From a virus (Duplodnaviria > Heunggongvirae > Uroviricota > Caudoviricetes), in IMG/VR virus record IMGVR_UViG_2537561928_000019: 4,256 bases of DNA; one strand, written 5' to 3'. The position numbers were made by a program, and so were the translations under genes. Below the pieces are notes generated by a model that worked only from the letters and a program-made list of their open reading frames with translations, did not search any database and was not told where the DNA came from. Shown here one piece after another: positions 1 through 3,933 of this stretch. Numbering within the stretch: position 1 is the stretch's first letter; every line of letters begins with the position of its first letter.

Positions 1-67
1 CTTCGCCTTCGGCAAGACCTTCGAAGTATTCTTCGTAAGCCTTTTCCATGATTGCGTCGAAATCCAT
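1..67 (-). CDS. 5' end of a small prophage early-left-operon protein (possibly YdfB-like); the rest lies beyond the left window edge
   Basis: Minus-strand ATG at 67..65 preceded by an AGGTGA Shine-Dalgarno-like motif (rc of 72-77). Open frame to the window edge; visible N-terminus is MDFDAIMEKAYEEYFEGLAEGE. The start lies 1 nt after the stop of the upstream ORF (TGAtATG), an operon-type junction. Not in the ORF track because it has no stop inside the window. Confidence 0.45.
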   Translation of the reverse strand, partial: MDFDAIMEKAYEEYFEGLAEGE

Positions 68-68
68 A

Positions 69-224
69 TCACTCACCTGAGTTTCTTTCCAGCCAGCGAC
101 GAGCGCCAGTTTCGGTTTTAAACGTTTTGCTTTTGGTATACGTCATCGCGGTGAATGTGCCGTCCTGGTTGGGAAACACGCCGCATACCAGAGATTCGCT
201 GTTGCCAAGATCGATAGTATCCAT
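69..224 (-). CDS. ydfA: Small 51-aa prophage protein, YdfA-like (DUF1391-type family of the Qin dicB-operon region)
   Basis: Within track ORF 69..302(-). Chosen start is the internal Met at 224 (MDTIDLGNSESLVCGVFPNQDGTFTAMTYTKSKTFKTETGARRWLERNSGE) because a GAGGT SD sits 4 nt upstream. The 51-aa length and sequence match my recollection of the YdfA family; assignment is from memory, not a search. Confidence 0.5.
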   Translation of the reverse strand: MDTIDLGNSESLVCGVFPNQDGTFTAMTYTKSKTFKTETGARRWLERNSGE

Positions 225-400
225 GCTGACCTCATTTCCCCTTAACGCCGGGGTAGCGGAACAAAAACCTGCTGCATAGTTAAAGTTGAACCCTGCCGTC
301 ATGTTCTTACGCCTCGGGCTGGCTACTTAACCCCTGACCACTGCCTGGTAACTCGAAGTATTGCCCTGCATTATGTGGGGCGGGGTGGGTTGATATTTTT

Positions 401-443
401 AGTTTAATAAACATTAAACTTAAGTCAAGTAAAAACTAAACCG
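401..443 (-). promoter_or_regulatory. OL-like operator/promoter element for the leftward early operon
   Basis: Perfect 8-4-8 palindrome AGTTTAAT-aaac-ATTAAACT at 401-420. On the minus strand, TTGACT (428..423), a 16-nt spacer and TAAACT (406..401) form a sigma70-like promoter reading toward ydfA. The segment 402-420 is 17/19 identical to 1427-1445, and AACTAAACCG at 434-443 recurs as CACTAAACCG at 1457-1466. Confidence 0.5.
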
Positions 444-512
444 CAGGGCGTAACAAACACAACGCTTTTGATAAAGTCGTTGCGGTTGTTATGTTTCTAT
501 TGGTAGTGAAAG

Positions 513-791
513 TTAGGGAAACTGGCGTCTTGCGTGGATCACGTTTACTACTTCAACGCTTGATGTTGTTACGCGGTATAGAATTATATAGTTAGGGTGG
601 GCTACAATCTCACGCAAGCCAGGTACTCTGTCGCTTGGTGGGTATAAATACGGATGTTCGGATAACGGCAGCACACAACCCCTTAATCGCTGCCATAAGC
701 GTTCAGCCGCATCTATGTCGAAACGAGCAATATAACTAGTTATATCATCTAGGTCGGTATCTGCGCTTTCAAGCCATAACACGGGTAACAT
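513..791 (-). CDS. parE2: ParE-family (RelE/ParE superfamily) type II toxin, 92 aa
   Basis: Within track ORF 513..887(-); start placed at the internal ATG 791..789, 1 nt after the stop of the upstream antitoxin (TAAtATG). Protein MLPVLWLESADTDLDDITSYIARFDIDAAERLWQRLRGCVLPLSEHPYLYPPSDRVPGLREIVAHPNYIILYRVTTSSVEVVNVIHARRQFP has the typical ParE layout and a C-terminal ...YRV...V.VV.V.H.RR motif. I cannot tell paralog 1 from paralog 2 by eye. Confidence 0.75.
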   Translation of the reverse strand: MLPVLWLESADTDLDDITSYIARFDIDAAERLWQRLRGCVLPLSEHPYLYPPSDRVPGLREIVAHPNYIILYRVTTSSVEVVNVIHARRQFP

Positions 792-792
792 T

Positions 793-984
793 TTACTGCT
801 TGCTCCGTTCCTTGCGCATTTTAGCAAAGCGTTCTGCCATTCTGCGCTCAACTTCGTCATGGGGAATTGCTGGGCGTGGATCTGCAAGGCTCGTTGCTAC
901 TTTTGCACGCAGCCATTCGTTGTAACTGTTTTCTTGTTCAATGGTTTCAAATTCAGAAACCATTGGTGAAAGGGCTCTATTCAT
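793..984 (-). CDS. paaA2: PaaA2-type antitoxin (small, likely disordered), 63 aa, partner of ParE
   Basis: Within track ORF 793..1038(-); start at Met 984..982 has a GGAGG SD 4 nt upstream (rc of 989-993). Protein MNRALSPMVSEFETIEQENSYNEWLRAKVATSLADPRPAIPHDEVERRMAERFAKMRKERSKQ matches my recollection of the E. coli O157 PaaA2 antitoxin. Lies between the regulator and the toxin in one operon. Confidence 0.7.
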   Translation of the reverse strand: MNRALSPMVSEFETIEQENSYNEWLRAKVATSLADPRPAIPHDEVERRMAERFAKMRKERSKQ

Positions 985-1004
985 GTTTCCTCCGGTTTTA
1001 TAAC

Positions 1005-1376
1005 TCAGGCGCGGCGGCATTTTTGCGCCGCAATCCATCTCGCTATGAGATCTTCCATTGATTCTTTTTTCTGCTTTAACTCGCTGATTATCTGGCGTTG
1101 CTCATCCTCAGGGAAGGCTGAAAAAATCTGCAATAATTCCAGTTGATTAGACGTTAACCCTGCATGTGGTGGAGAAACCTCCGGTTGTTCTGCGTATTCC
1201 GCATCCAGATACCCTTCCGGCATCCCGTATGTTTGCTCTATTCTTCTGGCAGCCTTTTCTCCAAACGAGGCTCTCCCACTCATTAGTTGAGATAGGTAGC
1301 TCTTCTCTTTGGGTGGCAGAGTTTTATCTTTAAACCACTCCTTGAGACGTAAACGGCGAATTTCTTTTTTTTGCAT
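1005..1376 (-). CDS. paaR2: PaaR2-type CI-like HTH transcriptional regulator, 123 aa (first gene of the three-component TA operon; occupies the prophage repressor position)
   Basis: Within track ORF 1005..1481(-); start placed at Met 1376 (MQKKEIRRLRLKEWFKDKTLPPKEKSYLSQLMSGRASFGEKAARRIEQTYGMPEGYLDAE...). The N-terminal HTH-like segment (SYLSQLMSGRASFGEKAARRIEQTYGMPEGYL) resembles the YdaS-like protein encoded divergently. No SD before ATG 1376, but a GATAAT -10 lies 6 nt upstream, suggesting a leaderless transcript. The stop is 20 nt before the paaA2 start. Confidence 0.7.
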   Translation of the reverse strand: MQKKEIRRLRLKEWFKDKTLPPKEKSYLSQLMSGRASFGEKAARRIEQTYGMPEGYLDAEYAEQPEVSPPHAGLTSNQLELLQIFSAFPEDEQRQIISELKQKKESMEDLIARWIAAQKCRRA

Positions 1377-1474
1377 GTGGTAATTATCTTTAGTAATCAC
1401 TAAACAAGCAAATACTTGACTTAATGGTTTATTAAACACTAAACTCTCAAAAAAAACACTAAACCGAGGAAGGT
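1377..1474. promoter_or_regulatory. Divergent promoter/operator region (OR-like) between paaR2 and the ydaS-like gene
   Basis: Palindrome TTTAGT-aatc-ACTAAA at 1389-1404. Three ACTAAAC-containing elements at 1398-1405, 1438-1444 and 1459-1465. Rightward candidate promoter: TTGACT 1416-1421, 18-nt spacer, TAAACT 1440-1445, then GAGGA SD 1466-1470 before ATG 1475. Leftward candidate promoter (minus strand): -35 TTGCTT (rc of 1406-1411), 17-nt spacer containing the palindrome, -10 GATAAT (rc of 1383-1388). Confidence 0.6.
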
Positions 1475-1777
1475 ATGACATTAAAAGAGTTTATTAAATC
1501 ATTGAGGGTTGGTGATGCTAAGAAATTCGCAGCCAGACTTGGTGTATCGCCATCTTACTTATCGCAAATGGCGTCTGGACGAGCAGCTATATCTCCAACA
1601 CGCGCCCTTATGATCGAATCTGCGACGGAAGGCCAAGTAAGTAGGGCGGAGCTACGACCCCATGATTGGGAGCTTATTTGGCCTGAGTATGCGAGCGGCA
1701 TTCGTTTGGGGCAAACACATGTAGTTCATGCTGAAGGTGATTGTAGTGCATGCTTATCTGATGGAGTTGATTCATGA
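1475..1777 (+). CDS. ydaS: YdaS-like Cro-type HTH regulator, 100 aa
   Basis: Track ORF 1475..1777(+). HTH-like segment FAARLGVSPSYLSQMASGRAAISPTRALMIESAT. Divergent from the CI-like regulator, as in cI/cro and racR/ydaS pairs. Stop overlaps the next start (ATGA at 1774-1777). GAGGA SD upstream. Confidence 0.7.
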   Translation: MTLKEFIKSLRVGDAKKFAARLGVSPSYLSQMASGRAAISPTRALMIESATEGQVSRAELRPHDWELIWPEYASGIRLGQTHVVHAEGDCSACLSDGVDS

Positions 1778-2199
1778 AAATCAAGCATGAACACATCCGC
1801 ATGGCGATGAATGCCTGGGCGCATCCGGACGGTGAAAAAGTTCCGGCTGCGAAAATTACCAAAGCGTATTTCGAGCTGGGAATGACGTTCCCGGAACTGT
1901 ATAACGACAGCCATCCGGAAGCCCTGGCTCGCAATACTCAGAAAATTTTCCGCTGGGTGGAGAAAGACACCCCTGATGCGGTTAAAAAAATTCAGGCGTT
2001 GTTACCAGCTATCGAAAAGGCAATGCCACCTCTGCTGGTGGCCCGAATGCGCAGCCACAGTTCAGCCTATTTTCGGGAGCTGGTGGAGACACGGGAGCGA
2101 CTGGTGAGAGACGCTGATGATTTTGTCGCAGTGGCAATCGCCGGTTTCAATCAGATGAACCGCGGTGGCCCGGCAGGAAATGCTGTGGCAGTGCATTGA
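1774..2199 (+). CDS. ydaT: YdaT-like protein (CII-like regulator of Rac/CP-933P-type prophages), 141 aa
   Basis: Track ORF 1774..2199(+). N-terminus MKIKHEHI... and size match my recollection of the YdaT family. Translationally coupled to the ydaS-like gene through the ATGA overlap. Confidence 0.75.
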   Translation: MKIKHEHIRMAMNAWAHPDGEKVPAAKITKAYFELGMTFPELYNDSHPEALARNTQKIFRWVEKDTPDAVKKIQALLPAIEKAMPPLLVARMRSHSSAYFRELVETRERLVRDADDFVAVAIAGFNQMNRGGPAGNAVAVH

Positions 2200-2270
2200 C
2201 TGACAATAGCCATATCGAATCGCTTCCGGCAACTCGTGAGTAAAAAGATTCGGTATCAGAAGAGGTGAGT

Positions 2271-3341
2271 ATGGCTAACGCCTGGCTCAGATTATGGCAT
2301 GACATGCCAAATGACCCTAAGTGGCGAACAATTGCCAGGGTGTCAGGGCAGCCAATTGCAACAGTGATGGCAGTGTATATCCACCTCCTGGTGAGCGCGT
2401 CACGAAATGTCACGCGAGGTCACATTGATGTCACGACAGAAGATTTGGCAAGTGCGCTCGACGTGACAGAAGAGGTAATTGATTCAATTTTGCAGACGAT
2501 GCAGGGGCGGGTACTTGACGGTGATTTAATCACTGGATGGGAAAAACGCCAGGTGCTGAAAGAGGACAACGGCAATATTTCGCAAACCGCAAAATCTCCT
2601 GCAGAGCGCAAGAGGGCGCAGCGAGAGAGGGAAAGAAAGCGGGAACAAAATGGCAATTGTCACGGCGCGTCACGAAATGTCACGCACATGTCACGACGAG
2701 TCACGACAGATAAAGATACAGATAAAGATACAGATCAAGAAGATCAAAACACTATGGTCCATGGCGTAAAAAACGCCACGAACCAGGCAGGGGATGTTCA
2801 GACCGTCAATCCTGGTCAGCCAGCAGGCACGACACCGGAAGCCGATTCAGCGTATGCGCTGAAAGCCGATTCGGGCGCTGTGCAGCAGGTGATGACCGCA
2901 AGGCCGGAGCAATCACACCAACTGCAGCAGCCTGAAGCCGATTCCGCCATTCAGCGGGAAGCCGATCGGGTAGTCCCGGAAAACACCGGGCAGCCTGTGA
3001 GACGAGTGGATTATCCGGATGTGTTCGAACAGGTCTGGCGGGAATACCCGCTGCGTGCTGGGGCAAACCCGAAGAAATCCGCTTTCAGTGCCTGGAAGGC
3101 CAGATTACGCGAGGGGGTGTCACCAGAGGCCATGCTGGATGGCGTGAGGCGTTACGCAAGATACCTTGCGGCTACCGGGAAAACGGGAACGGAATTTGTT
3201 CAGCGAGCGACGACGTTTTTTGGACCGGACCGGAATTTTGAAAACCCCTGGCTGCTCCCGGTAAGCGGCACGAACAACCAGCGTTGTGTGAATCATATTT
3301 CTGAACCGGATACCGAAATTCCACCGGGCTTCAGGGGGTAA
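2271..3341 (+). CDS. Putative phage replication initiation protein (in the YdaU / lambda-O position) with a low-complexity central linker and embedded iterons
   Basis: Track ORF 2265..3341(+). I prefer ATG 2271 (MANAWLRLWHDMPNDPKWR...) with GAGGTG 3 nt upstream; GTG 2265 is the alternative. The C-terminal segment VFEQVWREYPLRAGANPKKSAFSAWKARL... resembles a motif I recall from phage replication proteins. The central part is Asp/Lys/Thr-rich low complexity encoded by DNA repeats. Position after the cro/cII analogs matches lambdoid O-type genes. Confidence 0.65.
   Translation: MANAWLRLWHDMPNDPKWRTIARVSGQPIATVMAVYIHLLVSASRNVTRGHIDVTTEDLASALDVTEEVIDSILQTMQGRVLDGDLITGWEKRQVLKEDNGNISQTAKSPAERKRAQRERERKREQNGNCHGASRNVTHMSRRVTTDKDTDKDTDQEDQNTMVHGVKNATNQAGDVQTVNPGQPAGTTPEADSAYALKADSGAVQQVMTARPEQSHQLQQPEADSAIQREADRVVPENTGQPVRRVDYPDVFEQVWREYPLRAGANPKKSAFSAWKARLREGVSPEAMLDGVRRYARYLAATGKTGTEFVQRATTFFGPDRNFENPWLLPVSGTNNQRCVNHISEPDTEIPPGFRG
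2399..2435 (+). repeat. Iteron-like direct repeat cluster 1 (4 copies of GTCACR at 10-11 bp phasing)
   Basis: GTCACG at 2399 and 2409, GTCACA at 2419, GTCACG at 2430. The 21-mer GCGCGTCACGAAATGTCACGC at 2396-2416 recurs exactly at 2666-2686. Confidence 0.5.
2659..2705 (+). repeat. Iteron-like direct repeat cluster 2 (5 copies of GTCACG at 10-11 bp phasing); candidate origin core
   Basis: GTCACG at 2659, 2669, 2679, 2690 and 2700, one copy per helical turn, immediately followed by an AT-rich tandem repeat. Located inside the initiator gene, as lambda ori is inside O. Confidence 0.55.
2707..2750 (+). repeat. AT-rich tandem repeat (CAGATAAAGATA x2, then degenerate CAGATCAAGAAGATCAA); possible DNA-unwinding element
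   Basis: Exact 12-bp tandem duplication at 2707-2718 and 2719-2730, followed by degenerate copies. Encodes DKDTDKDTDQEDQ in the initiator. Directly 3' of iteron cluster 2. Confidence 0.45.
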
Positions 3342-3381
3342 GTGTTGATTTCTGGTCATGAGGTAATTTTCAGGAGGGCTT

Positions 3382-3804
3382 GTGGCAAAAGTTTTTACAC
3401 AAGAAGAGCGGGAAAAAATTAAAGGGCAGGTTGTTGAACTCGTACGCCGGAGTGGGCGTGAGACGTTACGGCAACTGGAAGTCAAGACAGGTGCGACAAG
3501 ATATCTGATGAGCGTTCTCGCAAGAGAGCTGGTTGCCAGCGGCGATGTATACAACTCTGGTTACGGGTTATTCCCGTCTGAACAGGCGCGTAAGGACTGG
3601 CAAAATGCCCGTAAAAAGCTCTCAAGGGCAAAGCTGAAGGAACCATCTGCGGTTGATCCGGACCTTATCTGGTCATTACCTGACGGAGAAATACGTCGTT
3701 ACGACAGGCGTCATAATATGATTTGTACTGAGTGTCGTAAAAGCGAAGTTATGCAGCGCATATTGTCGTTTTATCAGGGGGATGTCCGGTATTTATTGAA
3801 GTGA
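3382..3804 (+). CDS. Hypothetical protein, 140 aa, function unknown
   Basis: Track ORF 3382..3804(+). GTG start with AGGAGG SD at 3372-3377; an in-frame stop 18 nt upstream limits any extension. Starts 40 nt after the initiator stop, so probably the same operon. The protein is basic with a possible HTH-like N-terminal segment (RETLRQLEVKTGATRYLMSVLARELV) and a C-terminal CTECRK motif. I do not recognise the family. Confidence 0.6.
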   Translation: MAKVFTQEEREKIKGQVVELVRRSGRETLRQLEVKTGATRYLMSVLARELVASGDVYNSGYGLFPSEQARKDWQNARKKLSRAKLKEPSAVDPDLIWSLPDGEIRRYDRRHNMICTECRKSEVMQRILSFYQGDVRYLLK

Positions 3805-3872
3805 CGAGATTAAAGTGCATTAGTTCAGATGCAAATTGACATTTTGTGGCACAGGGTAGAGCTAGCGTGGTT

Positions 3873-3896
3873 GTCCGCTTTGTGCCAAGAGCGGAC
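3873..3896. terminator. Candidate stem-loop between convergent genes (weak intrinsic terminator candidate)
   Basis: GTCCGCT (3873-3879) pairs with AGCGGAC (3890-3896) around a 10-nt loop, followed by TTTG. The U-tract is short, so this is weak. Confidence 0.25.
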
Positions 3897-3933
3897 TTTG
3901 CAAAATGGGGGTTATTTCAATCAAAACGTAACG

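Follow-up and report, generated by a model that had tools for sequence, protein, structure and literature searches.

The 4,256-nucleotide stretch of phage DNA analyzed here (hereafter, the window) carries what is, with a probability somewhat above 90%, an allele of paaR2-paaA2-parE2, an operon that here forms part of a complete lambdoid immunity cassette (about 391-1757, plus ydaT), where it would function as an addiction device. What can be read from the window itself is the structure of the genes, the identities of their proteins, the architecture of operators and promoters, and synteny. [quoted passage not shown] For this 99% identical locus, publications already cover the module and its control by PaaR2, YdaS and YdaT, as well as bistability, addiction and the comparison with rexAB.

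The paaR2-paaA2-parE2 operon and its proteins

The operon consists of three co-directional genes on the minus strand, with paaR2 first (open reading frame listing and direct reading; Table 1). Each gene starts with ATG, and PaaR2 begins MQKKE. On the same strand, a gap of 20 nt (985-1004) lies between paaR2 and paaA2 and includes GGAGG 4 nt before the paaA2 ATG, whereas paaA2 and parE2 are separated by the single nucleotide at position 792 (junction TAA-A-ATG). The gene order, the protein sizes and both junction lengths reported by a previous model-made annotation of the same DNA (the sequence-only reading) are exact. The mechanical list of reading frames also contains the longer frames 513-887, 793-1038 and 1005-1481 (124, 81 and 158 aa, respectively), which are artefacts of its 'first start after a stop' rule and were rejected as genes; the shorter starts are fixed by the crystallized proteins and by the N-terminus of PaaR2 as sequenced in PMC8630535 (MQKKE).

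Table 1 Features of the immunity cassette and its neighborhood, in window coordinates.
Feature	Position	Strand	Basis
OL/PL, left of parE2	396..441	-	promoter scan and inverted repeats
Imperfect hairpin after the parE2 stop codon, possible weak transcript end	452..492	-	RNA fold
parE2, ParE-family toxin, 92 aa	513..791	-	Pfam, PDB, EDL933 protein
paaA2, antitoxin without DNA-binding domain, 63 aa	793..984	-	Pfam, PDB, EDL933 protein
paaR2, CI-analogue repressor, 123 aa	1005..1376	-	PDB, EDL933 protein, PHROG
OR region, 98 bp	1377..1474	.	between paaR2 and divergent ydaS
PRM-like promoter (TTGCTT, 17-nt spacer, GATAAT)	1383..1411	-	direct reading
OR operator palindrome CTTTAGTAATCACTAAAC	1388-1405		predicted from repeats
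PR-like promoter (TTGACT, 18-nt spacer, TAAACT), driving ydaS-ydaT	1416..1445	+	promoter scan
OR operator palindrome GTTTATTAAACACTAAAC	1427-1444		predicted from repeats
OR operator half-site ACACTAAAC	1456-1464		predicted from repeats
ydaS, Cro analogue, 100 aa	1475..1777	+	Pfam YdaS_toxin and HTH_3
YdaT operator OM TTGATTCATGAAAATCAA, ydaS/ydaT junction	1767..1784	+	match to published site
ydaT, CII analogue, 141 aa	1774..2199	+	Pfam YdaT_toxin
O-like replication initiator	2265-3341		PHROG 3729

The 92-aa protein belongs to Pfam family PF05016 ParE_toxin (E = 1.9e-16; 60.9 bits vs. a cut-off of 23) and is identical, over 92/92 residues, to the crystallized O157:H7 toxin (PDB 5CW7 chain B/5CZE) as well as to the EDL933 protein WP_001303511.1. 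The 63-aa protein belongs to PF21217 PaaA2 (E = 1e-19; 70.7 bits vs. a cut-off of 27); it is identical to the EDL933 protein, and its residues 2-63 are identical to PDB 3ZBE/5CW7 at all 62 aligned positions. The regulator agrees with PDB 7NKV/8C3K, which the depositors named 'Phage repressor protein CI', at every one of residues 1-65, and the whole protein matches the transcriptional regulators of PHROG 5736 (E = 1.6e-39). It is composed of an N-terminal HTH domain and a C-terminal oligomerization domain, and its C-terminus weakly resembles DicA. In a search of the 123-aa PaaR2, no Pfam family was detected at E ≤ 0.01, and an S24 peptidase domain was not found. Because this C-terminal domain, which underlies RecA-stimulated self-cleavage, is absent, PaaR2 is CI-like in function and not a member of the CI/LexA family; PaaR2 has been reported to lack a peptidase motif and not to respond to mitomycin C (PMC8630535).

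A ParE-family toxin gene, a PaaA-family antitoxin gene directly upstream of it, and paaR at the head of the array together make up the PaaR-PaaA-ParE type of three-component toxin-antitoxin system. The sequence-only reading had equated the three genes with the paaR2-paaA2-parE2 module of O157 prophages, and the searches bear this out: the PaaA and ParE families were recovered in both Pfam and PDB, and the regulator was matched to PaaR2 in PDB and in EDL933. In EDL933 CP-933P, the toxin and the antitoxin are identical to those of the window, and the regulator is identical at 121 of the 123 positions.

When the EDL933 CP-933P locus was compared with the window base by base, 11 differences were found in the 1081 bp between positions 400 and 1480 (99.0% identity). 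The order, sizes and junctions of paaR2-paaA2-parE2 are the same as in CP-933P/Sp12, and OL/PL, OR/PRM/PR and ydaS are the same save for single-base changes. The only protein changes in the three operon genes are G66E and G67V of PaaR2, in the interdomain linker that follows the HTH domain; paaA2 differs at three nucleotides, all synonymous, and parE2 at none. The OR region is 98 bp long in the window, with a run of eight A residues (A8), compared to 97 bp (A7) in CP-933P, T1447G being the sole other difference within OR, and YdaS carries T37A relative to EDL933. The linker changes, YdaS T37A and the longer A-run could shift the switch quantitatively. With His6 added, the calculated mass of EDL933 PaaR2 is 15081.0 Da and equals the intact mass measured in PMC8630535, and thus EDL933 harbors the allele that was studied experimentally. 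Full-length identity of the window PaaR2 with the studied protein was rejected, as the tagged window protein has a calculated mass of 15195 Da instead of 15081 Da, because residues 66-67 differ from EDL933.

On the minus strand, neither a promoter-like nor a terminator-like site was detected between paaR2, paaA2 and parE2 (promoter and terminator scans). The published paaR-paaA-parE locus is a co-transcribed three-component system whose promoter lies ahead of paaR (Hallez 2010, as summarized in PMC4803016), and co-transcription of the three genes is likely in the present allele as well. Both the described co-transcription and the lack of an intervening promoter or terminator support the transcriptional link between lysogenic maintenance and toxin-antitoxin expression that the sequence-only reading had drawn. 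The link is not exclusive, given that transcription of paaA2-parE2 occurs whichever state the switch is in; nor is ParE2 activated when the switch flips (PMC8630535).

Operators, promoters and the genetic switch

The two palindromes and the half-site predicted in OR form one repeat family (D1). The motif GTTTAGT is present in four copies in the window, compared to 0.34 expected, and all four fall inside OR or OL. The spacing of the PRM-like promoter places the predicted transcript start at, or adjoining, the paaR2 ATG, as in a leaderless mRNA; this stretch is identical in sequence in CP-933P, where a leaderless paaR2 mRNA was mapped by 5' RACE and N-terminal sequencing (PMC8630535). The PR-like promoter on the opposite strand corresponds to PR933P of PMC8630535. 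To the left of parE2, the leftward PL consists of TTGACT (428-423), a 16-nt spacer and TAAACT (406-401); the palindrome GTTTAATAAACATTAAAC (402-419) overlaps it, and another half-site lies at 433-441. Both hexamers are common to PL and PR (promoter scan), the hexamers of PL933P have likewise been reported as identical to those of PR933P (PMC8630535), and two inverted repeats (I1 and I3) tie 402-431 to 1413-1437.

The locus therefore displays divergent repressor and cro-type genes, a common multi-operator region with back-to-back promoters, and a second operator/promoter set beyond the repressor operon, all of which are hallmarks of lambdoid immunity regions. In CP-933P, PaaR2 has been identified as the functional analogue of lambda CI (Jurenas 2021, PMC8630535). 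In the intergenic region, which is 97 bp long there, the footprints of PaaR2 and YdaS fall on overlapping operators, each of the two proteins represses PR, PRM and the PL left of parE2, the primary role of PaaR2 is the repression of ydaST, and the immunity region is bistable (PMC8630535). The placement of the regulator in the CI position by the sequence-only reading holds on each of these counts, since the gene diverges from the Cro analogue ydaS across the 98-bp operator region, the operator motif and the promoter hexamers recur at PL/OL, and the CP-933P protein represses PR, PL and PRM (PMC8630535).

Downstream of parE2, the RNA fold of 395-530 on the minus strand has an energy of −27.2 kcal/mol (z = −2.6). 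The terminator scan detected no minus-strand terminator after parE2, and the hairpin, which is not canonical, is a weak candidate for the end of the operon transcript by fold prediction. A scan of the whole window against Rfam produced no match at E ≤ 1.

On the rightward side of the switch, YdaS is identical at 99 of 100 residues to PDB 8C7K, 'Phage antirepressor protein Cro'. YdaT matches the CII-like transcriptional activators of PHROG 163 (E = 3e-45) and is identical to the CP-933P YdaT (PDB 8BT1) at 120 of 141 residues, being nearer to PDB 3C4R. The OM site is an exact match to TTGATTN6AATCAA, with 0.04 matches expected by chance; a YdaT footprint on this motif was mapped in Prolic-Kalinsek 2023 (PMC9986795), and a PRE-type promoter activated by YdaT, PRE933P, has been described in CP-933P (PMC8630535). 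By analogy, OM is a putative site of a PRE-type promoter that would read back into paaR2-paaA2-parE2.

We propose the following mode of action for the cassette. PaaR2, an HTH protein without a peptidase domain, would bind the GTTTAGT-type operators at OR and OL, repress both PR (ydaS-ydaT, rightward) and PL (leftward), and control its own leaderless PRM transcript, on which paaA2 and parE2 would ride. The Cro-like YdaS would compete for the same operators, and the CII-like YdaT would bind at 1767-1784 and activate the PRE-type promoter reading into the operon. PaaA2, unstable and largely disordered, would sequester the stable ParE2; upon loss of the cassette, PaaA2 would be degraded by ClpXP/ClpAP and ParE2 would kill the cell. 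Such killing would make the PaaA2-ParE2 pair an addiction device that stabilizes the prophage immunity region.

Much of this scheme has precedents in the published locus. ParE is toxic and is specifically neutralized by PaaA, and PaaA2 is degraded by ClpXP/ClpAP (Hallez 2010, as summarized in PMC4803016, and PMC8630535); PaaA2 has no DNA-binding domain, ParE2 induces SOS and co-localizes with the nucleoid, and a mini-F plasmid is stabilized by the whole ydaST-RAE2 region (PMC8630535). Addiction, which the sequence-only reading had suggested, is in agreement with the post-segregational killing demonstrated for the published locus (Hallez 2010, in the same summary; PMC8630535). Stabilization of the prophage is still a proposal, because single-cell work did not identify a physiological trigger of ParE2 (PMC8630535).

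Mosaic context and recurrence of the toxin-antitoxin pair

The best match to the whole window among complete E. coli genomes covers 89% of it at 96.9% identity, and there is no full-length match in this set. Homology to CP-933P stops at about position 235 on the left and about position 2188 on the right, and the replication modules differ: the window has the O-like initiator with iterons and a DUF977 protein, whereas CP-933P has an HTH/DnaC-like pair. The DUF977 protein, also annotated as 'Ren-like', lies in the right arm (Pfam, PHROG); a partial reading frame at the right end of the window had no match in Pfam. Judged by sequence, the window is a mosaic variant and not CP-933P itself.

The closest full context is that of the temperate coliphage Evi (LR597642), which matches positions 235-3899 at 97.1% and encodes ParE2 and YdaS identical to those of the window. 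Evi is an infectious phage isolated from infant faecal viromes, and thus the cassette is not confined to cryptic prophages. Another phage, Tritos, matches positions 1-390 and 1758-3900 at 95-98%, with an unrelated CI/Cro pair in between. This swap sets the bounds of the exchangeable immunity cassette at about 391-1757, with the toxin-antitoxin pair travelling inside, and replacement by a different immunity specificity while the flanks are conserved is a further lambdoid hallmark of the region. Among 5426 complete E. coli genomes, 633 (about 12%) contain the cassette, with a coverage of at least 80% in 595 of the 633 and an identity of at least 99% in 534.

The pair is also found behind other repressors. 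Loci in strains STEC2017-197 and RMDEC364 encode ParE and PaaA that are 90-95% identical to those of the window and that, as in the window, lie between PL/OL and a repressor gene diverging from ydaS/ydaT-like genes. However, the repressors of these loci have an unrelated N-terminal HTH domain, such that only their C-terminal 46-80 residues align with PaaR2 (41-52% identity), and their operators differ from those of the window, with AAGTGT-type motifs in STEC2017-197. These loci are grouped with the heteroimmune variants, alongside paaR1-paaA1-parE1-type modules, the equivalence of their repressors to paaR1 being putative. The homology between the STEC2017-197 locus and the window ends exactly at the start of paaA, position 985; paaA-parE can therefore be separated from the repressor as a module, which fits the published idea that the pair was inserted into the immunity region (PMC8630535). 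The retention of the pair behind differing repressors, together with the break at the paaR/paaA junction, suggests selection that is independent of the repressor.

What the window adds to the published work is thus comparative, namely, an allele in a different prophage backbone, the presence of the cassette in a plaque-forming phage and across a substantial set of E. coli genomes, and the recurrence of the toxin-antitoxin pair behind other repressors; these observations could guide tests of immunity-region protection or of phage exclusion. The role of the pair and the target of ParE2 are no more testable from the window than from the published locus.

Role of the pair and comparison with lambda and parDE systems

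Given its position, the pair might act like RexAB, that is, as an abortive infection or superinfection exclusion function that is co-transcribed with the repressor and kills or arrests the lysogen upon infection, for example, when an invading phage halts host transcription and the labile PaaA2 decays. The pair occupies the rexA-rexB position, downstream of the repressor in one transcript, its antitoxin is protease-labile, its transcription continues in either state of the switch, it is carried by the infectious temperate phage Evi, and it keeps 90-95% identity even where the repressor ahead of it has another specificity, all of which would suit such a function. However, ParE2, PaaA2 and PaaR2 had no match among the PADLOC defence models, the pair shows no sequence relation to RexA or RexB (Pfam identifies ParE_toxin and PaaA2), phage exclusion by PaaA2-ParE2 was not found reported in the searched literature, and the published phenotype is post-segregational killing (PMC8630535), so that we regard the RexAB-like function as quite unlikely. 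As a prediction for Evi-type phages, it is conceivable, if rather doubtful, that PaaA2-ParE2 guards the cassette by killing lysogens that have lost it or exchanged it for one without the pair, or else causes rex-like abortive infection when a superinfecting phage shuts off the host.

If PaaR2 were merely the third part of a stand-alone tripartite toxin-antitoxin system with a split antitoxin, and not a prophage repressor, its adjacency to ydaS would be coincidental. Although Hallez 2010 (as summarized in PMC4803016) first described the locus as a toxin-antitoxin system of three components and PaaA2, having no DNA-binding domain, needs some regulator, the operator motif and the PR hexamers are repeated at PL/OL, outside the toxin-antitoxin operon; PaaR2 represses PR and PL in reporter assays, with ydaST repression as its primary role (PMC8630535); the CI/Cro pair of Tritos fills the exact slot of parE2-paaA2-paaR2-ydaS; and the homology break at 985 makes the pair and the repressor separable. 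This possibility is already largely refuted and scarcely credible. Decay of a cryptic prophage could have left the locus as a remnant that no longer does anything in this host, but this too is very improbable: all five reading frames are intact, the toxin and the antitoxin are identical to functional proteins, with the nucleotide differences limited to the three synonymous ones in paaA2, the cassette is conserved at 99% or above in the 534 genomes, and plasmid stabilization has been shown experimentally (PMC8630535). These observations outweigh the cryptic state of CP-933P and the failure to detect steady-state ParE2 activity (both PMC8630535), as well as the mosaic neighborhood, which speak for a remnant. 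An addiction device within a lambdoid immunity cassette is the reading that best accounts for the data.

Compared to the canonical parDE systems of RK2, Caulobacter and Vibrio, the operon shares the ParE fold (PDB 3KXE, E = 3.6e-05) and a gene order in which the antitoxin precedes the toxin. However, the antitoxin is PaaA, which has no DNA-binding domain, and not ParD, transcription is under separate phage regulators, and ParE2 has been reported neither to bind GyrA59 nor to inhibit gyrase (PMC10886550).

The analogy with lambda rexAB that the sequence-only reading had proposed is already in print, with paaA2-parE2 replacing rexA-rexB and PaaR2 replacing lambda CI (Prolic-Kalinsek 2023, PMC9986795). 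[quoted passage not shown] The layout and the logic, however, are those of lambda cI-rexA-rexB: the repressor gene reads leftward and is leaderless, two accessory genes follow it on one transcript, OL/PL and OR/PR lie on either side, and the region also has a cro analogue that diverges from the repressor and a CII analogue with a PRE-type site.

Repressors and annotation of related loci

Repressors with unrelated HTH domains, namely PaaR2 (residues ~70-123) and the repressors of the prophage loci L007 and L008 and of locus L004, have in common a C-terminal motif, ELLQ.F.AFPE.EQ...K.KKE.ME, which is weakly similar to the C-terminus of DicA (NCBIfam PRK09706, E=9e-07). In the CI protein of phage Tritos, an apparent trace of this motif was discerned by eye, in an alignment at 21% overall. 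The motif is probably an oligomerisation domain common to peptidase-less lambdoid repressors.

The prophage locus of strain RMDEC364 (L007, NZ_CM177020.1) contains, at 3437-4300, a tandem pair of repressor genes upstream of paaA-parE. The repressor adjoining OR is PaaR2-like (123 aa, 73% identical); the second, a 153-aa HTH gene of the other type, overlaps the antitoxin gene at its annotated start, and an IS66 element lies to the left of parE. This locus looks like a recombinant of two immunity types.

In the deposited record of the temperate coliphage Evi (LR597642.1), parE2 is absent from the annotation, yet an ORF identical to ParE2 is present at ~4282-4560; in the same record, paaA2 is labelled a hypothetical protein and paaR2 a regulator.

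The O-like initiator gene and the ends of the window

The gene for the O-like replication initiator contains GTCAC(G) iterons in two clusters, of 4 and 5 copies respectively, spaced by ~10 bp; the pattern GTCACGN4GTCAC was found 5 times, compared to 0.05 expected. By analogy with lambda O, the iteron clusters probably represent the phage replication origin. The middle of this gene also harbors repeats (repeat region, window 2706-2729 and 2835-2966), i.e. a perfect 12-bp tandem repeat, ACAGATAAAGAT, in two copies, and a 36-nt direct repeat that includes GAAGCCGATTC; the repeats encode a low-complexity linker (DKDTDKDT..., PEADSA...).

At the right end, the product of the partial minus-strand gene matches the end of WP_001678528.1 at 100% identity, the latter being a hypothetical protein of 314 aa that is present in many E. 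coli genomes, and no Pfam family was found for this partial product; the gene looks like a moron. The small ORF at the left end is represented by its start only (MDFDAIMEKAYEEYFEGLAEGE...).

Features of the O-like initiator gene and of the two ends of the window
Feature	Window position	Strand	Remarks
Small ORF	1-66	-	Among first genes downstream of PL; leaves window at left end
DUF1391 (ydfA-like) ORF	69-302	-	Among first genes downstream of PL
GTCAC(G) iterons, cluster 1 of 2	2399-2437		Inside O-like initiator gene (2265-3341)
GTCAC(G) iterons, cluster 2 of 2	2659-2707		Inside O-like initiator gene (2265-3341)
DUF977 protein (LygF in phage-record annotation)	3382-3804		PHROG 142 'Ren-like exclusion protein', E=2e-44
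Partial gene, 3' end, 106 codons	3934-4256	-	AT-rich segment, 37% GC; leaves window

Operator spacing compared to CP-933P

When the paaR2-ydaS intergenic region was compared with that of CP-933P, the near-identical locus of E. coli O157:H7 EDL933, the region in the window proved to be longer (98 bp vs. 97 bp), with a T/G change between the two at position 1447. Within 1447-1456, between the third OR operator and the fourth, the window has a run of eight A (A8) and CP-933P one of seven (A7), so that the operator spacing in OR is altered by 1 bp.
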